Shown piece by piece: positions 6,586-60,741 of a DNA stretch of 64,000 nucleotides. Origin of the DNA: Gammaproteobacteria bacterium (lineage in GTDB: Bacteria > Pseudomonadota > Gammaproteobacteria > Eutrophobiales > Eutrophobiaceae); the NCBI GenBank assembly GCA_965205405.1, contig OZ242169.1, positions 2,480,091-2,544,090 of the forward strand, given 5' to 3'. Every line of letters begins with the position of its first letter. Position 1 is the first letter of the stretch. The notes under the pieces are model-generated. The model did not search any database. It had not been told where the DNA came from and saw only the letters and a program-made list of their open reading frames with translations. Made by a program: the position numbers and the translations under genes.

Positions 6586-6966
6586 CTATTGGTTTCTACC
6601 TTTATAGGCCCGAACCGCAGAATTGAACAACTCACCCGTCGATGCCATTTCATCCACCATTTTATTGTAGAAAAGGATGTTGATTTGCAGTTGCTCTTCA
6701 GTGGCGGTTTCTCCCCAGCTATCCCGGAGTCCGTCAAGGCAGGCCAGCACGGCTTCCCCGTTGGCAATATAGTTTTTGATGCCCATTTGCGCATCAATCA
6801 TCTCCTCCTCGGAGGATTTCAACCCGTTGGGAATGGAAGGTCTTTCCGGCATCGGGCAGGTTTCAATCACCTCGGTGGATGCGGATTCGGCCTGAGCGAG
6901 CGTGACCTGGATTAGTGCGATGCCGAATATCAAGGAACAGGGCAAATACAGTGCTGCCGACTTCAT
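6586..6966 (-). CDS. Small secreted hypothetical protein
   Basis: 126 aa with an N-terminal signal peptide (MKSAALYLPCSLIFGIALIQVTLAQA) and two Cys. No family recognised. Confidence 0.4.
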   Translation of the reverse strand: MKSAALYLPCSLIFGIALIQVTLAQAESASTEVIETCPMPERPSIPNGLKSSEEEMIDAQMGIKNYIANGEAVLACLDGLRDSWGETATEEQLQINILFYNKMVDEMASTGELFNSAVRAYKGRNQ

Positions 6967-7072
6967 GAGCGCCTCCTATGAAAATATGTTATTCAGAATA
7001 CCTGAGCGTATACTATGATTTTATACGCCTCGCCATAACCGCTATCATACAGGGTTTTATGGGATAGTTAAT

Positions 7073-7763: not shown

Positions 7764-8714
7764 ATGAATACGGCAACAGAAAATCGCACCAAGTTAGATC
7801 AACGGGGAAGATTGAAAACCGCGCGCATCCCCATAAGAGTAGTACCGATGGAGGGAAAGCCGCCGAGAAAACCCAACTGGATCCGGGCTAAAGCTCCCAC
7901 TGATCCCAAAGTGTTTGAGTTGAAGCGGCTGTTGCGGGAACATTCCCTGCATACGGTGTGTGAGGAGGCCTCCTGTCCCAACCTGGGTGAGTGTTTTTCC
8001 CGCGGCACTGCCACCTTCATGATCATGGGCGATACCTGCACCCGGCGCTGCCCCTTTTGTGACGTGGCTCATGGCCGTCCTCAACCCCTGGACAAGGATG
8101 AACCGGAACACCTGGCCGACGCAGTCAAATTAATGGGTTTGAAATACGTAGTCATCACCTCCGTTGACCGGGATGACCTGAAAGATGGCGGGGCAGGGCA
8201 CTTCAGGGATTGTATTGAGGCCGTCCGCCGCAAGGCGCCGGCTACGAAGATCGAAATACTGACCCCGGACTTCCGCCGCCGGATGGACATAGCCCTGGAA
8301 AAACTGGGCAAAGCGCCCCCCGACGTCTTTAATCATAACCTGGAGACGACGCCGGTCCTGTACCGCAAGGCCAGACCGGGCGCCGATTATCCCTGGTCCC
8401 TGGAACTGATCCGGAAATTCAAGGCACAACATCCCGGAATACCGACAAAATCCGGTCTTATGCTGGGACTGGGTGAAGAGATTGAGGATGTCAAAGCAGT
8501 ATTACGCGACCTCAGGGATCATGACTGCGACATGCTGACCCTGGGCCAGTACCTGCAACCTAGCAAGTATCACCTGAAGGTGGAGAGATTCGTGGACCCG
8601 GCAGAATTCGCCGACCTGGGCGAATACGCCAGACAACTGGGCTTCACCAGTGTAGCCAGCGCCCCCATGGTGCGGTCATCGTACCATGCCGACCTGCAGG
8701 CCGCTGAGATCTAG
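7764..8714 (+). CDS. lipA: Lipoyl synthase LipA (radical SAM)
   Basis: 316 aa. Auxiliary cluster [12 protein letters not shown] and radical-SAM cluster CTRRCPFC. Confidence 0.95.
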
Positions 8715-8740
8715 CTCCCGGGATACCGGCTTCCCTAAGG

Positions 8741-8823
8741 ATATTTGGGGTCAGAGTAAAAATACGCAGCAATGGACCAGCAGCGCCTGTGAGTGTTTGT
8801 ATTTTTACTCTGACCCCAAATAT
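8741..8823. repeat. Family-A hairpin repeat copy 1: 25-bp perfect terminal inverted repeats ATATTTGGGGTCAGAGTAAAAATAC / GTATTTTTACTCTGACCCCAAATAT around a 33-bp unique spacer
   Basis: Seen directly in the sequence. The arms are exact reverse complements. The same arms recur at 26300, 50809 and 60594 with different spacers. Confidence 0.85.
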
Positions 8824-9003
8824 CCGGACGATGATCTTATCTCCTGACCTGTCAGATCCAACCCCGCTCTTAAAAAGTGGATTACCTTTGAGGGGCAGAT
8901 CAAATGTCTTGGCCATCTTTATCACCTATAATAATAATCGCCTATTTGAGCTGTTGGGTTTTAGCACAGTAAGCGTGAATAATCCCACCGGATAGAGCCA
9001 GAA

Positions 9004-10494
9004 ATGAGCATGCGACCACACCAGTTAATGTGGAAACAATTGATACAGCTGGACGCATCTGCTCAGGAAAGTCTGCAGATGCAATTGAGAAGAGGACTGA
9101 CCAACGCTATTCTCTATGGTCAGGTCAGTATTGATTTACCGCTACCCTCCAGCCGTGATCTGGCGCAGCAATTGCAAATATCCCGAAATACCATTGTTCT
9201 TGCGTATCAACGACTGGTGGATGAGGGCTATCTCATCAGTCGAGAAAGACAGGGCTATTTTGTTAACCCGGCAATCCTCGAATCCAGACCGCAGTACCAG
9301 GAGAACGAAGACACAGTAGGCTCAAGTACACCGGAATGGCAGGCCAGATTAAACTTCGACCTCTCAATACAACGTAATATACAAAAACCGAGTCATTGGC
9401 AAAAATTTGAATACCCTTTTGTCTATGGCCAATCCGACCCTTCATTGTTCCCTATCGCCGATTGGCGCGAGTGTGTGCGTCAATCACAAAGTGTCGCGGT
9501 GATAACCGCAGGCAGTTTTGACTATATTGATCAGGATGATGAGGTATTGGTAGAGGAATTGTGCATTCGAGTCCTGCCGCGGCGAGGCATTTGGATCAGG
9601 CCGGAACAATTACTGGTTACCATTGGCGCGCAGAACGCCCTGTCGATAATCTCGCAATTACTCTTTAACGAAGACTCTGTTATCGGCATTGAAAACCCTG
9701 GATATCCTGACGCCCGCAATTTATTTTCATTACGCACCAAGCAATTGGTGTTACTTGAAGTTGATGAGTATGGCTTGATCATTAACGACAAACTCAATCA
9801 ATGTGATTATGTGTACGTCACCCCTAGTCACCAGTCCCCTACCACAACCACTCTCCCCGTGGGAAGACGTAAGGAATTGCTGGATAAAGCCAGACTGCAC
9901 GACTTCATTATCATAGAAGATGATTATGAATCCGAAGCTAACTATATCCATCAGGCAATCCCGGCTTTGAAGAGTTCGGACACCAATAATCGAGTGATTT
10001 ATTGTGGTAGTTTATCGAAATCGCTCGCTCCTGGTCTCCGTCTCGGTTATCTGGTTGCCGATGTTGAACTGCTCACGCAAGCACGCATATTACGGCGCTT
10101 ATTATTACGCCATCCCCCTGCCCTAATTCAGAGAACAGTCGCATTGTTCCTTCAACTCGGTCATTACGACTCACATATCAATCGGTTTAACCAGGTGCTG
10201 AAAAACCGTTGGAAGATAATGGCCGAGGCACTTGAGCAATACATGCCCGGTTCGACCAACATTCCGGAATTTGGTGGCACAGCCTTCTGGATACAGGGAA
10301 CGGAGGGAAGTAACTCTCGCCAGCTCACAGAAGAGTGCGCCAAGCAGAGTATCCTCATAGAGCCGGGAGATGTCCATTTCGGACAGGATAATCCTCCCAA
10401 TAACTTTTTTCGATTAGGCTTCTCCTCCATAAGTGAAGATCGGATCCAAAAGGGTATCGCACATATCAAGGACATCCTTAATAGTCTAATTTAG
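9004..10494 (+). CDS. MocR-subfamily GntR regulator (N-terminal wHTH plus C-terminal PLP aminotransferase-like domain); candidate TauR-like regulator of the adjacent taurine module
   Basis: 496 aa. N-terminal GntR HTH (SSRDLAQQLQISRNTIVLAYQRLVDEGYLISRERQGYFV). C-terminal class-I aminotransferase fold with an SLSK PLP-lysine motif (YCGSLSKSLAPGLRLGY). Confidence 0.8.
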   Translation: MSMRPHQLMWKQLIQLDASAQESLQMQLRRGLTNAILYGQVSIDLPLPSSRDLAQQLQISRNTIVLAYQRLVDEGYLISRERQGYFVNPAILESRPQYQENEDTVGSSTPEWQARLNFDLSIQRNIQKPSHWQKFEYPFVYGQSDPSLFPIADWRECVRQSQSVAVITAGSFDYIDQDDEVLVEELCIRVLPRRGIWIRPEQLLVTIGAQNALSIISQLLFNEDSVIGIENPGYPDARNLFSLRTKQLVLLEVDEYGLIINDKLNQCDYVYVTPSHQSPTTTTLPVGRRKELLDKARLHDFIIIEDDYESEANYIHQAIPALKSSDTNNRVIYCGSLSKSLAPGLRLGYLVADVELLTQARILRRLLLRHPPALIQRTVALFLQLGHYDSHINRFNQVLKNRWKIMAEALEQYMPGSTNIPEFGGTAFWIQGTEGSNSRQLTEECAKQSILIEPGDVHFGQDNPPNNFFRLGFSSISEDRIQKGIAHIKDILNSLI

Positions 10495-10613
10495 GTAATC
10501 AATAGCTGTGTAGTCGAATAGATATTCAGAAACTCCAGTTAACTCCTCCCCCACTTCACCAATCACGCTGTTATGGTTCCAAAGGTAACTCCATGGTTGC
10601 GTAGATAACGTCG

Positions 10614-11693
10614 CTAAAATGAATTTTCTTTCACATAATCATCAAGGTTCTGCAGATATTTATGTCTATCCTCTTCCGAAATCCAGGCTGATTCAAATGC
10701 ATTACTAATAAGCTGGACGACTTCATCTATTGAATAGTCACCGTGTCGCTGTACTTCCGATAGCGTATTATTTAGATAGCGACTGGCGAACTCCGACGGA
10801 TCGTCTGTGTTCACTGAAACCAGTAGGTTCAAATCAAGCATCTCACGAATACCCTCAACTCGACGAGGTCCTGGATCTGAGGGCCTCCAGGTTGGGCACA
10901 TAGTCAGTGGTATCCGGTTATCCTGGACCGCTGAAATTAATTTCTGATCATCCAGTACTTGCAACCCGTGATCAATTCGTTCTACTTTCAGGATGTCTAG
11001 ACATTGGCGAATGTGATTTATGGAATTAGGTTGATCACAATCACAATGTGATGTCAAATGATAGCCTTCCTCTCGCGCTCGCTTGAATACTTTTTCAAAC
11101 TTTAGTGGGAAGTCGTGTACTTCATAGTTATCCAGACCGACAGCGTTTATTTCAGGCTTAAAGGGTTTAGCAATATCCAGTATTTCCATACTTGATTCTG
11201 CACTATGATCACGCTGAAAATTCATTATCCAATTGGATTCTATTCCGAAATCTCGCTTACCGTCTTGCCTTCCACGATTGAGACCAGTAAAAAAATTCCT
11301 AAATTCAACGCCACGACTGGTATGTGCTTGCGTATCAAACATCATTTCTACGTAAACAATATTTTCTTTTCGGCATTTTTCAAGAAAAGCATAGGTGAGT
11401 TCATAGAAATCTTGTTCTTTCTGCAATACACGTATGCAATTTTCGTGATATTTTAAGAAATTATCTAATGGCGGCTCCCCATAATCTTGAGCTGCCCATA
11501 CTTCTTTTTCATTCTGAAAAGGAATATCAATTTTATTACGTTCTGCAAACTCCAGTAGCATAGAGGGTTCTACACATCCTTCAATATGAACATGTAATTC
11601 CGCCTTTGGCATACTCGCAATAAATTCAGCAAAGTTTTTTATCATGTTTATCTTTTCCAATACCACTTCATTTCCGTGACAGATTGTGAGCAC
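10614..11693 (-). CDS. Adenosine/adenine-deaminase-family metal-dependent aminohydrolase (true start possibly the internal Met at 11645)
   Basis: HVHIEG metal-binding motif near the N-terminus (KAELHVHIEGCVEP) and an SVNTDDP motif near the C-terminus, as in adenosine deaminases. It overlaps the pta stop codon. Confidence 0.7.
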   Translation of the reverse strand: MLTICHGNEVVLEKINMIKNFAEFIASMPKAELHVHIEGCVEPSMLLEFAERNKIDIPFQNEKEVWAAQDYGEPPLDNFLKYHENCIRVLQKEQDFYELTYAFLEKCRKENIVYVEMMFDTQAHTSRGVEFRNFFTGLNRGRQDGKRDFGIESNWIMNFQRDHSAESSMEILDIAKPFKPEINAVGLDNYEVHDFPLKFEKVFKRAREEGYHLTSHCDCDQPNSINHIRQCLDILKVERIDHGLQVLDDQKLISAVQDNRIPLTMCPTWRPSDPGPRRVEGIREMLDLNLLVSVNTDDPSEFASRYLNNTLSEVQRHGDYSIDEVVQLISNAFESAWISEEDRHKYLQNLDDYVKENSF

Positions 11694-12646
11694 TAAGCCA
11701 GAAAGGCCGTGATAACAGCTATATCAAGAATGTCTTTAGCCGTACACCCTCTGGACAAGCCCATCCAGGGTTTCGCCAAGCCCTGTAATAATGGTCCGAG
11801 GGCCGTTGCACCGCCGATCCTTTCTGTTATTTTATATGCGATATTGCCGGAAGATAGATCTGGGAAAATAAATACATTTGCCTTACCTGCAACCGCCGAT
11901 TCTTCCAATTTCAACTTCGCAACTTCTGGATCAAATGCAGCGTCAAACTGAAGTTCGCCATCAATATGTAAGGCAGGTCGTCGTTGCCTGGCTATATCCA
12001 GGGCTTTTCTCACTTTAACCACATGAGCATGTTCAGTACTGCCCTTAGTAGAAAAAGACAATAAGGCAACTCGTGCCTCTTCCCCCGTAAGCACTAAATG
12101 GTTTTCGGCACTATCAATGGCAATGCAAGCCAACTGCTCGGCATCGGGATTTGGTACTACCCCGCAATCTGCGTAGGTCATAACACGATCCTTTAGTTCC
12201 ATTAGAAACATACTGGAAAGTAAATTTTTCCCGTCCGCCAGGCCTATTCCTCGAAGACCAGCCCGGACCACGTCGGCTGTAGTAGCAACCGAACCGGCAA
12301 CGCCTCCATCTGCATAACCAATATTTACCAATACGGCGGCAAGTAATAATGGATTACTGTTCAATTCAAGTGCCGCTTGCTCGACTTTAATACCTTTCGT
12401 GGCTTGTAGTTGAGAATACACATCTATACAACGTACATACCAATCATCTCTATCAGTGCGATGCTCAAATACTTCAATATCATGCATTTTCACTCGCCCT
12501 TGCCTGATAAATAATGCAGTACCGTAATTACCCCTATTGAACTCCAGGGCTGCATGCATGACGCGAGGATCTTCCGATTCTGGAAAAATAATACGCTTAG
12601 GTGCTTGCCTGGCTATTTTCCGGATAAACTCAAGTACCTGTGCCAT
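11693..12646 (-). CDS. pta: Phosphate acetyltransferase (short PTA_PTB-type)
   Basis: 317 aa. PTA/PTB family pattern (RIIFPESEDPRVMHAALE ... GYADGGVAGSVATTADVVRAGL). Confidence 0.75.
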   Translation of the reverse strand: MAQVLEFIRKIARQAPKRIIFPESEDPRVMHAALEFNRGNYGTALFIRQGRVKMHDIEVFEHRTDRDDWYVRCIDVYSQLQATKGIKVEQAALELNSNPLLLAAVLVNIGYADGGVAGSVATTADVVRAGLRGIGLADGKNLLSSMFLMELKDRVMTYADCGVVPNPDAEQLACIAIDSAENHLVLTGEEARVALLSFSTKGSTEHAHVVKVRKALDIARQRRPALHIDGELQFDAAFDPEVAKLKLEESAVAGKANVFIFPDLSSGNIAYKITERIGGATALGPLLQGLAKPWMGLSRGCTAKDILDIAVITAFLA

Positions 12647-12692: not shown

Positions 12693-14123
12693 TCAAGAAT
12701 AACTATCCAATACCTCTCGGAATATTTCACGCATGTCATTGATTTCCGATTTCTCAATAACAAAGGGTGGCGCTACTAATGCCGCATCTCCCGTCGTTTT
12801 GACATGCACGCCAGCATCAAACAGTCTCTTTTGAAAGTTGTGACCACGCCTTCCAGGAGTACCATCAACTGCAACATCGAATGCGGCCAACATGCCATAT
12901 CCTCGAATATCCGTCACCATCGGATGGTCTTGTAGAGAGAAAATTGCATCCAGAAAATAATCAGATAAATCTTTGGCTCTCTGAAAAAGATTTTCCTTTT
13001 CAAAAATATCCAGCGTTGCAAGCCCGGCAGCACAGGCTGCAGGATGACCTGAATACGTATATCCATGAAACATCTCAACAACATTTTCAGAGCAACTATT
13101 GATAACAGTATCATAGATATTGTCATGTACTGCCACACCAGACATTGGCTGGGCAGCATTGGTCATTGCTTTTGCCATGGTAATAATATCGGGAGTGACA
13201 CCAAATTCTTGTGATGCAAATGCAGAGCCGGTTCGACCGAAACCGGTAATTACCTCATCGAAAACTAATATAATATCGTGTTCGTCACAGATTTCACGTA
13301 AGCGCTGCAAATATCCTTCTGGTGGAACGATCACACCCGTCGAACCAGCAATCGGCTCAACGAAACAAGCAGAGATTCGATTCGCACCATACAATTGAAC
13401 AGCGCGTAACAGATCATTAGCCAACTCTTCTCCACCTTCCTTGGGTTGACCCTTAATGAACTTCTGATCAGGTGATAATGTGCTTCGCATATGTGTCACG
13501 TTTGGTAATACGCCAGTGAAGGCCTCCCTGTTTTTGGCAATACCGCTCAGCGCTGTACCACCTATATTGACACCGTGATAAGCACGTTCGCGCGAAACAA
13601 ATATATTTCTCTGTGCCTCTCCTCTGGCAAAGTTATACGCCATGACAATTTTCATTGCTGTATCAACAGCTTCTGATCCAGAATTTCCATAGAAAATATG
13701 GTTAAGTGGATTCGGAGTTAATGCAGCAATACGCTTGGCCAACTCAAATGACTTTGGCTGTCCCCGTAAAAAGGGTGCCGTAAAATCCAACTGCCGGAGT
13801 TGTTCATGTACTGCAGCCGTAATTTCAGGACGGCAATGGCCACATGCGACGGCAAACAAACCTGAAGATCCATCAATCAGCCTTTCACCTTTATTGTTCC
13901 AAAGATATATTCCCTCAGCCCCGGTAATTATCCTGGGATCCTGCTTGAAGGATTTGTTATCAGTAAAGGGCATCCAGTGATTTTCCAGATCGGTACTGGA
14001 TATATCGATTGGTTGTACCTGGCCATTATTTTCTGGCATATTGAGCAGGATGTCTGCGACTGTATTAACCATTTTCTTCACCTGTATAAGCTGTTCAAAA
14101 TAATCAATAATGCTATTTGCCAT
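12693..14123 (-). CDS. Class-III (omega) aminotransferase, candidate taurine-pyruvate aminotransferase (Tpa-like)
   Basis: About 476 aa from MANSIIDYF. Class-III fold pattern (HWMPF..., GHCRPEITAAV, PLP-Lys region DEVITGFGRTG). Sits between pta and the Xsc-like gene. Confidence 0.75.
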   Translation of the reverse strand: MANSIIDYFEQLIQVKKMVNTVADILLNMPENNGQVQPIDISSTDLENHWMPFTDNKSFKQDPRIITGAEGIYLWNNKGERLIDGSSGLFAVACGHCRPEITAAVHEQLRQLDFTAPFLRGQPKSFELAKRIAALTPNPLNHIFYGNSGSEAVDTAMKIVMAYNFARGEAQRNIFVSRERAYHGVNIGGTALSGIAKNREAFTGVLPNVTHMRSTLSPDQKFIKGQPKEGGEELANDLLRAVQLYGANRISACFVEPIAGSTGVIVPPEGYLQRLREICDEHDIILVFDEVITGFGRTGSAFASQEFGVTPDIITMAKAMTNAAQPMSGVAVHDNIYDTVINSCSENVVEMFHGYTYSGHPAACAAGLATLDIFEKENLFQRAKDLSDYFLDAIFSLQDHPMVTDIRGYGMLAAFDVAVDGTPGRRGHNFQKRLFDAGVHVKTTGDAALVAPPFVIEKSEINDMREIFREVLDSYS

Positions 14124-14165
14124 CAGTATGTTACGTATGTATTTGACACTCACATAGAGCCAGAA

Positions 14166-14316
14166 ATGAGTAAGCGATCGCACCAGCTGATGTGGGAGCA
14201 GTATCTCGAGAAATACGATAGTACTTACTTATCAATGGTTTGTTGATGAAGGTTATCTGGTTAGTAGAGAGAGACAAGGCTACTTTGTTAGACCGACAAT
14301 ATTAAAGACTCGCCCG
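14166..14316 (+). pseudogene. Decayed fragment of a second MocR/TauR-like regulator gene, divergent from the aminotransferase
   Basis: DNA similarity to the intact gene at 9004. The segment 14152-14225 matches 8990-9063, including the shared upstream AGAGCCAGAAATGAG and MS.R.HQLMW. The segment 14238-14316 matches about 9205-9290 (VDEGYLISRERQGYFV region). The intervening ~150 bp is deleted and the frame is broken. Confidence 0.5.
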
Positions 14317-14524
14317 CTACTATATACCGGAATTCCTTAATTACTGGCTCTGAATACACTTCGAAACTGGCTCTATTTTCAAGTGCAATCCTTCTCTAAA
14401 GTTACCGACTTGTTAATATGAATATGCAAATGATTCGATTGGAATGAATAGTGCCCAGAATACACAGTTAGCGTTCTCGCTTGTATTCTGAACACATTCC
14501 CCTACCTTTCAGGAGTTAAAGATT

Positions 14525-16279
14525 ATGACACGAATGACGCCCAGTGAAGCGTTTGTAGAAACCATGGTTGCCAATGGGGTAACCAAAATTTTTGGAATCA
14601 TGGGATCGGCCTTTATGGATGCTATGGATATCTTTGAGCCTGCCGGGATTGATTTTGTGCCCGTTGTACATGAACAAGGGGCTGCCCACATGGCTGATGG
14701 CTATTCCCGTGTCAGTGGCAAACATGGCGTGTGTATCGGCCAGAACGGACCCGGGATAAGTAACTGTGTCACGGCCATCGCAGCCGCCTATTGGGCTCAT
14801 TCACCGGTGGTTATAATCACCCCTGAAACCGGTACCATGGGGATTGGCCTGGGAGGGTTCCAGGAAGCCAACCAGTTACCCATGTTTCAAGAGTTCACCA
14901 AGTACCAGGGACATGTCTGCAATCCTAATCGTATGGCGGAAATTACCGGCCGATGCTTTGAGCGAGCCCTGTCGGAGTTGGGCCCTACTCAGTTGAACAT
15001 ACCACGTGATTATTTCTACGGTGATATCGATGTGGAAATCCCCCAACCCCGGACTCTGGATAGGGGACCAGGGGGTGAAAAAAGTCTGAATGACGCTGCA
15101 GAATTACTGGCAAAAGCGAAATTCCCCGTCATCATTTCCGGCGGTGGCGTGGTTATGGCTGATGCTGTTCAAGAGTGTAAAGCCCTGGCTGAGCGCCTGG
15201 GTGCACCGGTGGTAAATAGCTATTTACATAACGACTCCTTCCCCGCCGGTCATCCGCTTTGGTGTGGCCCCCTGGGTTATCAGGGCTCCAAAGCCGGTAT
15301 GAAACTCATCAGTAGAGCCGACGTGGTATTGGCGCTTGGTACACGGCTTGGTCCATTTGGTACTCTGGCCCAGTATGGGATGGATTATTGGCCAGAGGAC
15401 GCCAGGATCATCCAGGTCGATGCCGATCATAAAATGCTCGGCCTGGTAAAAGAAATTTCAGTGGGGATCTGTGGTGACGCAAAAGCCGCAGTAATCGCCA
15501 TACACTCTCGTCTGAATGATGGCTCTCTGGCTTGTGATGCGAATAAGGAACAACGTGCAACTGAGATAAGTCAGGAGAAACAGGCGTGGGAAAAAGAACT
15601 TGATGAATGGATTCATGAGAAGGACGACTTCAGCCTCAAAATGATTGAAGAAGCCGTAGGTAAATTGCTCCATCCTCGCCAGGTATTACGAGAACTGGAA
15701 ACAGCCATGCCTGCAGATGTTATGGTATCGACCGATATCGGTAACATTTGTTCTGTATCCAATAGCTATTTACGATTTGAACGGCCACGCAGTATGTTTG
15801 CAGCCATGAGTTTCGGTAACTGCGGTTATGCATTTCCGACCATTATTGGTGCTAAATTGGCTGCCATGGATCGTCCGGCTGTCTCATATGTAGGCGATGG
15901 TGCCTGGGGTATGAGTATGGGCGAAACTATGACCTGCGTACGTGAAGGTATTCCTGTTACGTCGGTCGTCTTCCACAATAAACAATGGGGGGCGGAGAAG
16001 AAAAACCAGGTGGATTTTTACGGCCGCCGTTTTGTGGCCGGCGAACTGGACAATCAGAGTTTTGCTGAAATTGGACGGGCCATGGGTGCGGAAGGTGTCG
16101 TTGTTGACAAGTTGGAAGATGTCGGTCCTGCCTTCACCAATGCAATCAATTTACAGATGAATGATGGTATAACAACAGTACTTGAAATCATGTGTACCCG
16201 CGAACTGGGTGACCCCTTCCGCCGTGATGCATTGTCAACACCGGTACGTTATCTTGAAAAATACAAAGATTATGTTTAG
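14525..16279 (+). CDS. xsc: ThDP-dependent enzyme of the acetolactate-synthase superfamily; best fit is sulfoacetaldehyde acetyltransferase (Xsc)
   Basis: 584 aa. The N-terminus (MTRMTPSEAFVETMVANGVTKIFGIMGSAFMDAMD ... IGQNGPGISN ... GGFQE ... NIPRD) matches my recollection of Xsc. Pta and a class-III aminotransferase are adjacent, as in known xsc-pta/tpa loci. Confidence 0.65.
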   Translation: MTRMTPSEAFVETMVANGVTKIFGIMGSAFMDAMDIFEPAGIDFVPVVHEQGAAHMADGYSRVSGKHGVCIGQNGPGISNCVTAIAAAYWAHSPVVIITPETGTMGIGLGGFQEANQLPMFQEFTKYQGHVCNPNRMAEITGRCFERALSELGPTQLNIPRDYFYGDIDVEIPQPRTLDRGPGGEKSLNDAAELLAKAKFPVIISGGGVVMADAVQECKALAERLGAPVVNSYLHNDSFPAGHPLWCGPLGYQGSKAGMKLISRADVVLALGTRLGPFGTLAQYGMDYWPEDARIIQVDADHKMLGLVKEISVGICGDAKAAVIAIHSRLNDGSLACDANKEQRATEISQEKQAWEKELDEWIHEKDDFSLKMIEEAVGKLLHPRQVLRELETAMPADVMVSTDIGNICSVSNSYLRFERPRSMFAAMSFGNCGYAFPTIIGAKLAAMDRPAVSYVGDGAWGMSMGETMTCVREGIPVTSVVFHNKQWGAEKKNQVDFYGRRFVAGELDNQSFAEIGRAMGAEGVVVDKLEDVGPAFTNAINLQMNDGITTVLEIMCTRELGDPFRRDALSTPVRYLEKYKDYV

Positions 16280-17307
16280 GCTCCCAGGCCCAATTTACCC
16301 AGTGCCTTTTTATAAGCCACACTACAAACATCCGCATGGGTGTGCCGCTCATTTCTTATATTCAGAAGATATTCCTTTGGGTGAAGCTTCTCAATAATGG
16401 CTTTATCTTCTTTATTGACTTGCAACATGTAATCAATGTCGGCACGCGGGTCGTTATGCTGTGTGACGGCAATCTGAAAAAGCGTACATGAATAAGCAGA
16501 ATTGGGGGTTGCAACGTCATGCACTGAATATCTAACGCTACCATCCTGCTCCTCATCAATCAGTAATGAGCAAAAAGGTAATGTCAGTTCGGATATTAGA
16601 GTGAAATCTCTGGCAACTCCATGTACTGCTGAATGGGTTGTTTTAACACGCCTGAGCACATGGGCCACCGTTTGGTCGACTTCAAACTCCGGGACAGAGG
16701 AGGCTTCCGGATTTCCAAACGATTCTCTATGGACAATTGAAAGATGTGCAGGATCGTTAAAATTCTCCACATGTCTCGCAGCTGATGCTTCCCAGACCTC
16801 TGAATTAATACTCACTTTGGTATCCGGGTGATTCATAATTCCTTCGTTTTCAAGAATCGGCCATTCTGGTAGAGGCAAAATTGGATCAGGCTTCAGGCAA
16901 ACCCAGAGTAAACCGAAACGCTCCTCACTCCGGTATGTGATAAGGTTGAAACTACTGGCGATAGGCGCCGTCTGATCTTGCCGTGCAGGAATTTTGCTAC
17001 AGGTCCCATCTGCTTCAAATTCCAGCCCATGATAAGGGCAGACAATTTTGTTTTCTTCCACACATCCCATGCTGAGCGGCGCCCCTCGATGGGGACAAAT
17101 ATCCCGAGCCACGGTAATTCCTTTTCTGGTACGATAAATTACCAGTGGGATATCCATTAATATAAAGCGAACCGGTTTGTCTTTAATATCATCAATTAAG
17201 GCCACAGGATGACACATTGCTGCCAGAATTAGCCAGTCACTTCTTGTAAACTCAGTTTGATCGGGAAAGTCCGAATCATCTTTAACAAAATTTTTCGGTA
17301 GAAACAT
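16276..17307 (-). CDS. Rieske [2Fe-2S] non-heme-iron oxygenase alpha subunit, short VanA/TsaM-like type (paralog 1)
   Basis: 343 aa. Rieske motif CPHRGAPLS...CPYHG. No beta subunit or reductase gene adjacent. Confidence 0.75.
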   Translation of the reverse strand: MFLPKNFVKDDSDFPDQTEFTRSDWLILAAMCHPVALIDDIKDKPVRFILMDIPLVIYRTRKGITVARDICPHRGAPLSMGCVEENKIVCPYHGLEFEADGTCSKIPARQDQTAPIASSFNLITYRSEERFGLLWVCLKPDPILPLPEWPILENEGIMNHPDTKVSINSEVWEASAARHVENFNDPAHLSIVHRESFGNPEASSVPEFEVDQTVAHVLRRVKTTHSAVHGVARDFTLISELTLPFCSLLIDEEQDGSVRYSVHDVATPNSAYSCTLFQIAVTQHNDPRADIDYMLQVNKEDKAIIEKLHPKEYLLNIRNERHTHADVCSVAYKKALGKLGLGA

Positions 17308-17337
17308 AACTTAATTCCTTAAATTCTATAAGCAAAT

Positions 17338-18663
17338 CTACGAATGCCTGATTTCTACTATCATATTCGCAAAAGGTTTTAGTCCTGAATAAAAAATTAC
17401 GATGGCAATGGGTATAAATATCGCACCAAACAAGGACAAAGAGTAATGAACCTGAAGTGTGTTTTGAAACACAGTATCAGTAAAAAAAGCTACCAGGAAT
17501 GGGCCCACACCCGCCCCGATCAGTACCAAAATAAAAAGATAAATCGCCAGTATCTGCCCACGAAATTCATTGGGTGTAATCTGAGTGATACATGCCATAC
17601 CAACACCAATATTGGCTCCCAAAAAAAACATTGTCGGACCCAGTAAACACAATACAGTTATAGAATTTGGTGCCAGTGGGGTCACAATAAAAATCAGTAA
17701 TCCAAGACAAGCATAGACGGACACCCTTAGATATGCATCAGCAAAACCTCTTTTTATAAGCCAATCTGCCCATATACCGCCACACATTGTGCCGCCGCCA
17801 CCAAAGAATAAAACAACCAGACCAAATGCTATTCCTACCTCTCCAGGTGTCCAGGAAAAAATACGAATAAATAGTGTCGGGGTCCAGGCTAATAGACCAT
17901 ATCCCAACATCGCGGTAGTCGAATAACCAAAAATGATGGTTAAGTAAACTCGCAGGTGTGATGCCATAAAACGAAAGGTTTCTCTCAATGGTAATAATAT
18001 TGGAGCACCTTCTCCTTTATTTAGCCTATCGTGTCGCAAAGGTTCTTTGACAGACAGCATTACCAGGGCGGCAACCAATACGCCGGGCAAACCAACGATT
18101 ATTAAAGTCGTTTGCCAGGGTTGCAGTACACCTACAAGAGGTAATTCCAGCGCCGTGCTTTTGGCAACGGCCTGTACAACAAGACCACCCAGGATAAAAG
18201 ATAGTCCCCCTCCGACGTATGGACCCATCGCCAGAAGGCTGATAGGTTTACTGCGTTTATCCCGTGGAAAATAGTCAGACACCATTGAATACCCACAAGG
18301 TGACAAGCAAGCCTCACCTACCCCCACGCCAATACGGGCCAGGAAAAACATCCAGAAATTTTTTGCAAGACCGCAACAGGCCGTCATCAGACTCCAGGCC
18401 GTAATACCTATTGCAATAATGGTGCGGCGATTTTTGGAATCAGCCAGGCGTCCAATCGGAATTCCCATAAACGCATAGAAAATAGCAAAGGCAAAGCCGT
18501 GTAAAATACTTATTTGTGTATCCGTAATACTGAGGTCTGCTTTTATGGGTTCTATGAGTAAACTAATAATCTGCCGGTCAATAAACGAGACAACATTGGC
18601 AACCATTAAGACAGCGGCAACATACCAGGCGTATATCGGATTTGGGTAGTTATCGTTCGCCAT
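17338..18663 (-). CDS. MFS transporter
   Basis: About 441 aa from the internal Met (MANDNYPN...), 12 predicted TM segments, MFS-type G-rich loop motifs. Confidence 0.75.
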   Translation of the reverse strand: MANDNYPNPIYAWYVAAVLMVANVVSFIDRQIISLLIEPIKADLSITDTQISILHGFAFAIFYAFMGIPIGRLADSKNRRTIIAIGITAWSLMTACCGLAKNFWMFFLARIGVGVGEACLSPCGYSMVSDYFPRDKRSKPISLLAMGPYVGGGLSFILGGLVVQAVAKSTALELPLVGVLQPWQTTLIIVGLPGVLVAALVMLSVKEPLRHDRLNKGEGAPILLPLRETFRFMASHLRVYLTIIFGYSTTAMLGYGLLAWTPTLFIRIFSWTPGEVGIAFGLVVLFFGGGGTMCGGIWADWLIKRGFADAYLRVSVYACLGLLIFIVTPLAPNSITVLCLLGPTMFFLGANIGVGMACITQITPNEFRGQILAIYLFILVLIGAGVGPFLVAFFTDTVFQNTLQVHYSLSLFGAIFIPIAIVIFYSGLKPFANMIVEIRHS

Positions 18664-18794
18664 ATTTGAGACAGTTGCCAATTCGTTCACAATAAACTGC
18701 GGAAAAAATAATAATGTTAGACCTGGATAAAACGCATAATAGAAAAAAAGGGTGGACAATCCACCCTATTTATCACTTAGTCGAATGCATACAA

Positions 18795-21074
18795 TCAGAA
18801 TCGATAGGAAAGCGTACCCCCAAATTGACGCGGAGGCCCACCAGGCAGCACCATATGTTCGGCAATAAATGTAAATCCGTCATTTATCCATTCTTCATCT
18901 GCAAGATTCTTAACCCATAGTCTTACATCCCAGTTATCGTCAGAACCAGTGTAACCAATGCTTGCATTGAGTATCCAAAAAGCATCTTGTGATTCGTAAT
19001 CCGTATTTGTATCAGTAAAAAATTGTTTATCTCTCCAGTGCGGATTGAGTGTAAATGCCAGTTGACCACCCTGTGCCATCGGTACTGTATAGGTTATAAA
19101 AGTATTTGATGTCAGTGCCGGCGTTTTCGCGGTCGTATTACCTGTGACATCACCACCCCCAAACCCAAGAGCTAAACTGGTACTTACAAATTCAGATTCT
19201 GTCCAGGCGAGTGCTGAATAGATATTCAACTGTTCCATTGGTTGCCAATCGACCTCAACTTCAGCGCCATATCCCTCGACATCGCCAAAGTTGGCCAATA
19301 ACGATATACTACCCAGAACGCCACGAGCACCAGGAATCTCAACGAATCCGATTTTGTCTGTATAATCGTAGTAGTATCCTGACGCATTCACGCGCAAGGT
19401 GTCATCCAGAAAATCACCTTTAAAACCAGCTTCGAAATTACTCAAGAATTCAGGGTCGGTAACTTCAAATTCGTCGTTAGCCAACGCACCGCCGTTGAAA
19501 TCTCCACCCCTGAAGCTTCGAGACCACGTAAACCACAGATTTACATCATCATTCAAAGCGTATTGAAGTGAAATTCTGGCACTGGGTTCAAACCACTCTT
19601 CTTTTTGATTATCTTCGTTTGCCAAAATCGTGTGTGGCAAACTAAACCACAGTTGTTTATCAATTAACGTATTATCGAACGTGGGGTTGGGGACGATGCT
19701 ACCGGCACGTATCGCACCTACTCGTTCATCCCACGTTAACCTCAGGCCCGCCGTCGCCGTAAAACGATCGTTAAAGTCATATGAAACTTCGCCGAAAATT
19801 GCAAAATTTTGTTGCTCTATAATATTCAGTCGTCCTGCACTCGTACCACCAAATGCGAGGATGTAGTTAGAACGAAAGTATGTGAGTTCATCGTCATAAT
19901 AAAAGCCGCCCAGGACCCAGTTCCATGGCCCATCACTGTTGGATGCAAATCTAATTTCCGTACTCCATTGTTCATGTTCGTCGTCAAAGTTCGCATTTAA
20001 TACTCCTTGTGGAGAGCCATCAGTTTCATTCAGTTCTTGGCGGACATTAGACTGGAAGGCGGTAATAATCGTAGTTGTAAAGCTATCAAATTCGTAATCC
20101 ACGAATAACGCGGTTTGAAACAATTCCATTTTCTGAAACCCATCGGCACCAGAATTAATTGTATAGGGATCAGCATCAGCCACACCACCTAACAGGTTCA
20201 CACAGCTCGTACCCGGGCGCCCCCTCAACGGATCAGAACATGAAAATCCGAAATCAAATGGGAATGCGCCAAGACCCAGCGCCTTTTGTGGAGTATCTTC
20301 TCCATCAAGTTCACTGTATGTAATTGCTAATCTGGTGTTTAAACGGTCGGTTGGCTGCCAGGATATCTGCCCCCTTAGGGCGCCCCACTCGTGGCCACCA
20401 AGATTACTATCAGCAGGCGATGCAGGATTACCATTATCATACAAGCCGTCGAAGCTGCGATAGGTAGCGCTTAGTCGTGCAGCAATGTTTTCACTGATCG
20501 AGAAACCCACTGCACCTTCAAAATCATACTCATCTCCTTCGGCCGCCGTAACATCTACGTAACCATTGGTTTCCCCGCCTATCTCGGGTTTAACCGACAC
20601 GTAGTTAATCAGACCGCCTGTAGTATTTCTTCCCCACAATGTTCCTTGTGGGCCTTTCAGCACTTCAACCCGGTCCAAGTCGAATACCAATCCAGCAGTA
20701 CCGTAATTAGAACCAAAAACGACACCATCTTGATAAATCGCCGTCGCGTTTCCGGCGCTGACCTGGAAATCATCAACACCTACACCACGCAAACTATATT
20801 CTGTCTTGCCGAAACCGGTACCTGCAGTGGTTAAACCAGGTATCGAATCCAAGAGTTCTCTGCCATTCGCAATCGCACGCTTTTTGATGGTATCACCAGT
20901 AATCGCTGTCACAGCAATAGGCACCTCTTGAAGACTTTGCTCTCGCTTTTGCGCTGTTACGATAACTTCTTCTAACACTCCCTGCGCAGAAGCCAGTCCC
21001 GTCCAAAGCATCAAGATACCAAGTACGCCGAATAAGCTAATAATTTCTTTGAATCTGATCAAAATGAACTGCAT
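18795..21074 (-). CDS. TonB-dependent receptor
   Basis: Start at the ATG at 21074 preceded by GGGGAG. Signal peptide, plug (EEVIVTAQKREQSLQEVPIAV), C-terminal ...TLSYRF barrel terminus. Confidence 0.85.
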   Translation of the reverse strand: MQFILIRFKEIISLFGVLGILMLWTGLASAQGVLEEVIVTAQKREQSLQEVPIAVTAITGDTIKKRAIANGRELLDSIPGLTTAGTGFGKTEYSLRGVGVDDFQVSAGNATAIYQDGVVFGSNYGTAGLVFDLDRVEVLKGPQGTLWGRNTTGGLINYVSVKPEIGGETNGYVDVTAAEGDEYDFEGAVGFSISENIAARLSATYRSFDGLYDNGNPASPADSNLGGHEWGALRGQISWQPTDRLNTRLAITYSELDGEDTPQKALGLGAFPFDFGFSCSDPLRGRPGTSCVNLLGGVADADPYTINSGADGFQKMELFQTALFVDYEFDSFTTTIITAFQSNVRQELNETDGSPQGVLNANFDDEHEQWSTEIRFASNSDGPWNWVLGGFYYDDELTYFRSNYILAFGGTSAGRLNIIEQQNFAIFGEVSYDFNDRFTATAGLRLTWDERVGAIRAGSIVPNPTFDNTLIDKQLWFSLPHTILANEDNQKEEWFEPSARISLQYALNDDVNLWFTWSRSFRGGDFNGGALANDEFEVTDPEFLSNFEAGFKGDFLDDTLRVNASGYYYDYTDKIGFVEIPGARGVLGSISLLANFGDVEGYGAEVEVDWQPMEQLNIYSALAWTESEFVSTSLALGFGGGDVTGNTTAKTPALTSNTFITYTVPMAQGGQLAFTLNPHWRDKQFFTDTNTDYESQDAFWILNASIGYTGSDDNWDVRLWVKNLADEEWINDGFTFIAEHMVLPGGPPRQFGGTLSYRF

Positions 21075-21316
21075 CTTTGTCTCCCCTCTTGGCTTGGCAA
21101 TAACTAGTTTTGAGATCGTTGCAACCTCACAACGTACAATTTTTCGAACCATAAAATATAATGCAGCTAAAGCCATCTAAGTAGTACCAAACAACCTTTA
21201 ACCTTAGTACCACGAATTATTTCCCACATTTTTAGTGGATGCCTCTCTGTTTCAGGTCAAAAACTAAGCTATAAGGCGTTGATATTAATAGTAATAATTT
21301 ATCAGTTCATCCTAAT

Positions 21317-26299: not shown

Positions 26300-26382
26300 A
26301 TACTTGGGGTCAGAGTAAAAATACAGTCACTCGTGAACGACCCCGGCATGCTGTTGAGTATTTTTACTCTGACCCCAAATAT
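26300..26382. repeat. Family-A hairpin repeat copy 2 (one arm mismatch), in the xseA/guaB divergent promoter region
   Basis: Arms ATACTTGGGGTCAGAGTAAAAATAC / GTATTTTTACTCTGACCCCAAATAT around a 33-bp unique spacer. Confidence 0.8.
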
Positions 26383-26396
26383 CTATAGCGCCGCCC

Positions 26397-50808: not shown

Positions 50809-50893
50809 CTTCCGTTGGAAATTTGGGGTCAGAGTAAAAATATGGTCAACTTGGTAGGTGTTGCCGGTTTATTCGTGAGTATTTTTACTCTGA
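50809..50893. repeat. Family-A hairpin repeat copy 3, between the convergent PQQ-dehydrogenase and MoaD-like genes
   Basis: Arms AAATTTGGGGTCAGAGTAAAAATAT / GTATTTTTACTCTGACCCCAAATAT around a 35-bp unique spacer. Followed by the family-B half-site AAATCTGTCCCC at 50906-50917. Confidence 0.8.
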
Positions 50894-50925
50894 CCCCAAA
50901 TATCCAAATCTGTCCCCGCCCGGCA

Positions 50926-60544: not shown

Positions 60545-60593
60545 TTGCCATTCTACATGGCAGAATTTATCCTGTTTACCTGAATAACCATCG

Positions 60594-60707
60594 ATATTTG
60601 GGGTCAGAGTAAAAATACTTCGATATTTGGGGTCAGAGTAAAAATACGTCTAATCCGGTAGATTGTGTTGCTGTACTATTAAGTATTTTTACTCTGACCC
60701 CAAATAT
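60594..60707. repeat. Family-A hairpin repeat copy 4, with a tandemly duplicated left arm (29-bp period)
   Basis: Left arms at 60594-60618 and 60623-60647, 35-bp unique spacer, right arm at 60683-60707. Flanked on both sides (3 bp away) by the direct repeat TGAATAACCA (60581-60590 and 60711-60720). Confidence 0.85.
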
Positions 60708-60741
60708 CTCTGAATAACCAGCGGGGTAAGGAGGAAACACA

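Follow-up and report, generated by a model that had tools for sequence, protein, structure and literature searches.

The window, that is, the whole 64-kb stretch of DNA that was analysed, contained lipB, lipA and an intact regulator gene, followed on the minus strand by an adenosine-deaminase-family (add-like) gene (10614–11693), pta (11693–12646) and a class-III, Tpa-like aminotransferase gene (12693–14072), and then by a regulator gene remnant, xsc, and genes for a Rieske/VanA-like oxygenase, an MFS transporter and a TonB-dependent receptor. These genes were assigned by family scans, and the aminotransferase gene was also delimited by comparison with relatives. The xsc gene (14525–16279, plus strand) for sulfoacetaldehyde acetyltransferase matched TIGR03457 with 1028 bits against a cutoff of 676. 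The genes tpa, xsc and pta make up the standard taurine dissimilation route (PMC5320631). Both pta and the add-like gene were apparently co-operonic with tpa. Species-representative genomes were scanned with the aminotransferase, which yielded 80 tpa loci. The closest loci, L001–L003, belonged to three uncultured Gammaproteobacteria MAGs, with identities of 74–77% for tpa and 77–78% for MocR at the amino acid level. The polymorphism sample was composed of 12 sequences, the window and 11 strain-level contigs with MocR proteins 98.6–99.6% identical.

The add-like gene followed tpa in the window, in L001–L003 and in all 12 same-species strains (12/12), and it overlapped the stop codon of pta in the window. 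The position of pta between these two genes was found in the window lineage only; tpa and add were directly adjacent in L001–L003, and tpa was followed by pta in the relative L093. The oxygenase, transporter and receptor genes (16276–21176, minus strand) adjoined xsc in the window and in L001/L003, and this set may serve to take up and process a substituted taurine or some other sulfonate. Upstream of these three genes, a full CTGG-N19-CTGG operator with good boxes was not seen.

The longest open reading frame of tpa started at ATG 14123 (or GTG 14183). The conserved start is probably ATG 14072 or GTG 14081, because the relatives have a stop codon in the extension to 14123. The distance of 43 bp from the tpa start in the original prediction held for ATG 14123, and the conserved start gave an intergenic distance of 84–93 bp. 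The predicted −10 element of tpa (14128–14133) would place the transcription start downstream of 14123. Gene callers disagreed on the tpa product among the strain contigs, giving 412, 426, 459 or 476 residues.

The intact regulator (9004–10494, plus strand) was a MocR/TauR-like protein of 496 residues encoded between lipA and the 3′ end of the add-like gene. It was composed of a GntR winged helix-turn-helix (wHTH) domain (PF00392, residues 27–87) and an aminotransferase-like domain (PF00155, residues 155–488), and its translation contained the PLP lysine motif SLSKSLAPGLR. The gene clustered with the taurine dissimilation genes tpa, xsc and pta, and this association was kept in relatives. The best NCBIfam match was the PdxR equivalog (359 bits; cutoff 320), an assignment at odds with the genomic context; a TauR model was absent among NCBIfam and Pfam. 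Since the PdxR cutoff was exceeded and there is no curated TauR model, the name TauR rests on genomic context and motif. On these grounds the regulator appears better named TauR-like than PdxR, and automatic annotation would likely mislabel it as PdxR. Within the species, variable sites of the gene were distributed over the three codon positions as 6, 4 and 19, respectively. Its GC content (46.8%) was close to that of the neighbouring genes, and no mobile-element genes flanked it. When compared with the L001–L003 orthologues, the intact copy was 72.7–73.7% identical at the nucleotide level, and tpa, add and xsc were 70–79% identical. A collection of 5.8 billion proteins held no MocR with an identity between 79% and 98.6%.

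An insertion of 185 bp was located at 8740–8924, between lipA and the intact regulator and 79 nt upstream of the regulator ATG. It was present only in the window strain and in the strain L081, and absent from 11 other strains. The insertion held a palindromic repeat of ~87 bp (core 8739–8825), which had further copies at 26300–26383, 50817–50905 and 60593–60708 (at least three in the window), and it may be a MITE/REP-like element. L081, of the same species, matched the window at every position between 8562 and about 17338, so it adds no information on the locus. All but four of its 155 mismatches lay left of 8561, with 2.4% in lipB, which suggests that a recombination boundary lies close to the lipA 3′ end.

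The original prediction of a fossil copy of this regulator gene upstream of the aminotransferase was borne out. When 14050–14530 was compared with the whole window by blastn, two matches colinear with the intact gene 9004–10494 were found: 14154–14195 aligned with 8992–9033 (block 1; 42 nt, 85.7% identity, E 2.7e-8) and 14210–14300 with 9185–9275 (block 2; 91 nt, 75.8%, E 3.5e-13). No further match rose above noise within the 64-kb window. The translations agreed, and the similarity was not of the low-complexity kind.

The remnant was composed of two parts on the plus strand. Part A (14166–14201), placed by blastn, translation and orthology with the mocR 5′ ends of L001–L003, held the start codon and codons 1–12 of the dead tauR/mocR, and read MSKRSHQLMWEQ against MSMRPHQLMWKQ in the intact regulator. 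Part B (14203–14316), placed by blastn and codon alignment, held codons 59 to 96 or 97, covering the recognition helix and wing of the wHTH domain, and read ISRNTIVLTYQWFVDEGYLVSRERQGYFVRPTILKTRP against ISRNTIVLAYQRLVDEGYLISRERQGYFVNPAILESRP. Codon 12 ended at 14201, a stray T occupied the junction at 14202, and codon 59 started at 14203. Codons 13–58 were thus missing through a net internal deletion of 137 bp, which was frameshifting. The first block had been described as the ribosome-binding region, the start codon and about 20 codons; the actual extent is the −12 region plus 12 codons. The second block had been assigned to codons ~70–95, for which the codon-level alignment gave 59–97 in the +1 frame relative to part A. 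The scar of a 3′ deletion of ~1.2 kb, which removed codons ~98–495 and the start of the downstream spacer, was located within 14317–14343 by alignment with relatives, the junction being placed only within this range. The open reading frame from ATG 14166 was only 26 codons long, with a stop at 14244–14246. Of 38 residues in the remnant peptide, 30 were identical to the MocR of the window and also to P0002. The GC content of the remnant was 38.7% versus 47.7%, a drift toward AT. The homology to the MocR wHTH domain beyond chance, the destroyed and truncated frame, and the positional orthology to an intact gene identify the remnant as a pseudogene. A candidate C-terminal relic at 14321–14340 (ATATACCGGAATTCCTTAAT, compared with 10462–10481) was rejected, as 30 of 300 shuffles scored as well and the match was not colinear.

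In L001–L003, an intact mocR of 495 residues was located between tpa and xsc, in the order add-tpa | mocR-xsc-Rieske-MFS-TonB, and the DNA aligned in the same order as the window across tpa, the two remnant blocks and xsc. The spacer upstream of the remnant was similar to the tpa–mocR spacer of the relatives (p about 0.005–0.008). The remnant is therefore positionally orthologous to a live gene, and this was the site of the ancestral regulator, as had been proposed. L093, with a 68% identical regulator, had the order pta-tpa | mocR-xsc and likewise carried mocR between tpa and xsc; a 62% relative had the order pta | mocR. Overall, mocR was immediately divergent from tpa in 25 of the 80 tpa loci. 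The intact copy in the window, 3.6 kb from the remnant, was located precisely where the synteny with L001–L003 stopped, at the add-like 3′ end.

The L093 mocR showed features of its own. An in-frame TAG was located at codon 27 (6925–7010 of that locus), the gene was called from a TTG just past this codon, operator box 1 read TTGG instead of CTGG, and IS and recombinase genes surrounded the locus. A further regulator copy may be in the course of being lost here, or the assembly may be in error.

Shared CTGG direct repeats were located at 8992–9024 and 14344–14376, and a third pair coincided with similarity block 1. The predicted TauR-type operator facing tpa (14154–14186, minus strand) was assigned from the motif across loci and the published consensus. 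It was composed of box 1, CTGGTGCGAT (14177–14186), within the old codons 4–7, and box 2, CTGGCTCTAT (14154–14163), in the old ribosome-binding region. These direct repeats, CTGGTGCGAT-N13-CTGGCTCTAT, had a period of 23 bp and straddled the old start codon. The predicted operator facing xsc (14344–14376, plus strand; CTGGCTCTGA-N13-CTGGCTCTAT) was orthologous to the operator in the mocR–xsc spacer of the relatives. The sequence AACTGGCTCTATTTTC was common to the mocR–xsc spacers of L001–L003 and to window 14343–14385, with a second CTGG box 23 bp upstream. Hence the proposal that the remnant may carry the operators of both tpa and xsc applied to tpa, within block 1, but not to xsc, whose operator was outside the remnant, downstream in the retained former mocR–xsc spacer. 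The third operator copy (8992–9024, minus strand; CTGGTGTGGT-N13-CTGGCTCTAT) was carried with the intact regulator, straddled its start codon, and is a probable autoregulatory site.

The published TauR consensus consists of CTGGACYTAA direct repeats, and it is common for MocR regulators to use sites of this kind both for activation of the divergent gene and for repression of their own (PMC5320631, PMC4494728). The box period was 23 bp throughout the sites here, and their likeness to the published TauR sites rests on the box sequence. The pattern CTGG-N19-CTGG was oriented toward tpa in 21 of the 25 divergent mocR|tpa loci, with regulator identities down to 44%, and it straddled the mocR start in 10 of these 21. 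In L094, the operator straddled the mocR start and was oriented toward pta; in L093, it was present with one core mismatch. Upstream of xsc, the pattern was found in 13 of 37 loci, all with mocR nearby. The background was 0.09 per kb (1.31 Mb of loci, both strands). Over 24 sites, the consensus of box 2 was CTGG-C-(T/C)-C-T-A-(T/C). A refined pattern gave three matches in the 64-kb window, at 8993–9024 (minus), 14155–14186 (minus) and 14344–14375 (plus), with 0.19 expected, a shuffle statistic that is post hoc because the pattern was refined after the window sites had been seen. The independent support for the operators is provided by the other loci and the literature consensus.

At nearly all sites, a −10-like TAnnnT hexamer followed the promoter-proximal box at a distance of 20–21 nt. 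From this conserved geometry, candidate −10 hexamers may be assigned to tpa (TAACAT, 14128–14133, minus strand, 20 nt downstream of box 2, with TAATAT at that offset in L001–L003) and to xsc (TAAAGT, 14397–14402, plus strand, 20 nt after box 2, with TAGAGT or TACAGT in L001–L003). The resulting operator model was CTGGnnCTAn-N13-CTGGnnCTAn, 20 nt from a −10 element. This offset would place box 2 over the −35 region, as for class II activators, and transcription would be predicted to start near 14120 for tpa and near 14409 for xsc. Inspection ruled out TGGCTCTATTTTC as a sigma-54 promoter, as there was no GC at the −12 position. A generic scan for sigma-70 promoters and terminators gave 17 sites, with 12.7 expected, and was uninformative, and an Rfam scan of 13900–14700 gave no match.

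Two further features were observed near these sites. The xsc leader (14403–14524) was about 65–70 nt longer than in L001–L003 and contained an inverted repeat, CCCAGAATACA...TGTATTCTG, at about 14455–14490, with a fold that was not exceptional (z −1.4). A −10-like TACTGT (8966–8971, minus strand) was found 20 nt beyond box 2 of the 8992–9024 operator, an offset equal to those at tpa and xsc, and pointed antisense into the 3′ region of lipA. This hexamer may be left over from the old tpa promoter, or may match by chance, with a likelihood of about 1 in 32.

When the remnant was compared with functional genes (the intact copy, L002 and L003), block 1 had an identity of 86–89%, whereas that of block 2 was only 74–76%. 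Codons 1–7 of the remnant were identical to those of L001, third positions included. The relic with both deletions was fixed in all 12 sampled strains (12/12). Among these strains, the tpa and xsc operators had no variable sites (0/66), whereas the relic body (14187–14320) had 8 of 134 (6.0%); the third codon positions of five neighbouring genes were 3.9% variable. The difference between operators and body gave a Fisher p of 0.055, which is weak evidence of constraint within the species. Purifying selection on the coding body was not apparent at present, the numbers being small, and we read the body as drifting neutrally. In our reading, the 5′ 33 bp of the stub were kept because they serve as the predicted tpa operator.

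When the remnant was compared with the intact copy over 50 codons, the differences at codon positions 1, 2 and 3 were 14, 2 and 27, respectively, as against 5–6, 2–4 and 23–30 in comparisons between functional genes. Third positions were as saturated between the two window copies (27/50) as between species, and only 12 of 50 differed between L001 and L003. Had a recent duplication been followed by neutral decay, the three codon positions should differ to a similar extent, and this course was rejected. Of the proposed regulator duplication and decay, the decay was upheld, but a fresh duplication was not, given saturated third positions and nearly untouched second positions. At sites invariant in four live genes, remnant-specific changes occurred at 10/43, 1/46 and 6/19 of positions 1, 2 and 3, respectively. 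Changes from GC to AT affected 7 of 24 G/C sites at position 1 and none of 18 at position 2, and the AT shift was confined to positions 1 and 3. This codon-position pattern, which is drawn from 50 codons only, implies that most of the remnant divergence arose under protein-level constraint, though relaxed. Both copies would then have been separate, protein-constrained genes for a long time, with comparatively recent deletions and a short truly neutral phase since.

About eight amino acid replacements, among them R70W and L71F of the recognition helix, were unique to the remnant, and its specific residues W70, F71 and R88 were shared by none of the 127 homologous proteins compared. At informative first and second positions, the remnant agreed four times with the relatives (e.g. 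K3 and S5) and once with the intact copy (I59). Upstream of the ATG, ATAGAGCCAGAA was shared by both window copies and GTAGTGCCAGAA was found in L001–L003. For a placement of the remnant as sister to the window copy or to the L001–L003 clade, the informative sites were split 6 against 11, mostly at saturated third positions, and settled on neither.

The flanks of the intact copy were also compared. On the 5′ side, a 26-nt match between 8905–8930 and 14060–14086 beyond the operator, which was reminiscent of the tpa start and seemed colinear, was rejected, as it spans the edge of the strain-specific 185-bp insert. In the insert-free strain L084, the flank showed no significant similarity either to that of the remnant (z 1.3) or to L001–L003, so the detectable homology starts exactly at the operator box (8992 and 14154, respectively); it ends before the stop codon. 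The 3′ flank (10495–10613) had no similarity to 14301–14524 or to the mocR–xsc spacers of the relatives. A 93-aa open reading frame (8644–8925, minus strand), considered as a relic of the tpa 5′ end, had no similarity by tblastn. As possible mechanisms of relocation, add-(pta)-tpa-mocR may have been duplicated in tandem with subsequent loss of the upstream add-tpa, or mocR may have been copied and pasted together with its operator.

We consider it probable that the stretch is the decayed stub of an ancestral tauR, that the second copy acts in trans, and that the 5′ 33 bp of the stub are the predicted tpa operator. In this explanation, a tauR gene encoding a MocR-subfamily GntR regulator would have stood between tpa and xsc, divergent from tpa. 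Its role would have passed to a second, intact copy at a distance of 3.6 kb, flanked by lipA and the 3′ end of the tpa-pta-add operon, and we infer that this copy now supplies the regulator in trans. The resident copy would have been destroyed by the 137-bp internal and the ~1.2-kb 3′ deletion, after which the body would have drifted neutrally. Because the operator straddles the regulator start codon, the first ~7 codons could not be lost without loss of tpa induction; the 5′ 33 bp, with two CTGG-headed direct repeats, would remain as the TauR operator of the tpa promoter. The xsc gene would keep its own operator and promoter in the preserved former mocR–xsc spacer, and the relocated regulator would have kept its start-codon operator copy, probably for autoregulation. 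We also lean, by a narrower preference, toward a regulatory entanglement as what dictated the shape of the relic, with the start of the dead gene being a selected cis-element and the operator split into specialised copies. The TauR operator and an activator-dependent tpa promoter would overlap the ribosome-binding site and first seven codons of the regulator, so that deletions could take all but the 5′ stub after the function had moved. Relocation would thereby have split the shared operator into 8992–9024 for autoregulation and 14154–14186 for tpa.

Other explanations bear on the origin of the two copies and on the survival of the stub. Rather than through an old duplication within the genome, one copy may have arrived by horizontal transfer from a related lineage, most likely the intact one at the synteny breakpoint by lipA, and coexisted briefly with the resident gene before the latter decayed. 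This xenologous displacement avoids a long coexistence of redundant paralogues and accommodates third positions as saturated between the copies as between species (27/50 against 23–30/50), the sharing of only one of five informative first- and second-position derived states with the intact copy, and the location of the intact copy exactly where the L001–L003 synteny ends. It is nevertheless the less probable course, if a real possibility, as the intact copy was no farther from its L001–L003 orthologues than tpa, add and xsc were from theirs, had the GC content of its neighbours, and lacked flanking mobile-element genes, the nearby MITE-like insert being strain-specific. The ATAGAGCCAGAA common to the window copies, and the ~8 unique replacements, which suggest relaxed constraint of the remnant beside a second copy, also argue against it.

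The stub could instead persist by chance, as sequence not yet deleted, with the CTGG repeats unused and tpa driven otherwise. The body was clearly neutral, the within-species operator constraint was only marginal (p about 0.05), and pseudogene relics of this size are common in bacteria. Chance persistence is nonetheless improbable in view of the higher identity of block 1 than of block 2 against all four functional genes, the third positions of codons 2–7 that were all identical to L001, the ends of both deletions short of the operator, and the repeats with a fixed −10-like distance kept across loci with only 44–53% regulator identity. A reversed polarity, in which the gene at 9004 is the original and 14154–14316 a partial 5′ copy inserted upstream of tpa, is compatible in principle with the within-window similarity alone, and we regard it as extremely unlikely. 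The relatives carry an intact gene at the remnant position, their flanks (the tpa–mocR spacer, and the mocR–xsc spacer with its operator) are orthologous to those of the remnant, and the remnant retains the ancestral K3 and S5, which are changed in the 9004 copy.

The decayed-stub explanation was compared with known systems. TauR of Rhodobacter capsulatus and the reconstructed proteobacterial TauR regulons (Suvorova & Rodionov 2016, PMC5320631) involve a MocR-subfamily regulator with a GntR wHTH and an aminotransferase-like domain, clustered with tpa, xsc and pta, as here. Their CTGG-headed direct repeats, CTGGACYTAA, are located just upstream of target promoters and correspond to the predicted CTGGCTCTAT, CTGGTGCGAT and CTGGCTCTGA. 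In contrast to these regulons, the regulator in the canonical position is dead here and is presumably replaced in trans by a second copy at a distance of 3.6 kb, an operator box is inside the regulator's own first codons, and NCBIfam labels the regulator PdxR-like, the TauR assignment coming from context and motif. In the GabR–gabTD divergon of Bacillus subtilis, the MocR paradigm (PMC5320631), the regulator and aminotransferase genes are likewise divergent with a short shared control region, and the direct repeats are spaced by whole helical turns, which was counted as a likeness. There, GabR acts through shared sites as activator of the enzyme gene and as repressor of its own. Its box (ATACCA), spacing and pathway (GABA) differ from those of the window, where moreover the autoregulatory and activating functions would be split physically over two loci. 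Ordinary pseudogene relics left by paralogue or xenologue redundancy share the frameshift and truncating deletions, AT drift, neutral polymorphism and species-wide fixation seen here. However, the best-preserved part of this relic coincides with a predicted cis-regulatory element of the neighbouring gene, a specific reason for the survival of the 5′ end.

The locus is a TauR-type MocR divergon of a known kind, in which the resident regulator is dead and a second copy presumably took over. It is only slightly unusual, in that an operator within the regulator's first codons seems to have shielded the 5′ stub. For annotation, 14154–14316 is a tauR pseudogene fragment, predicted TauR operators are located at 14154–14186 and 14344–14376, and the start codon of tpa probably belongs at 14072 or 14081. 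The finding represents a tidy, ordinary case of gene relocation and decay and does not overturn current understanding. It provides a clean, datable case of a divergon that loses its resident regulator to a distant copy while the control region stays, and a well-supported predicted operator model for an uncultured gammaproteobacterial clade that is directly testable. It also illustrates how an operator that lies within coding sequence may persist after the gene itself has died.
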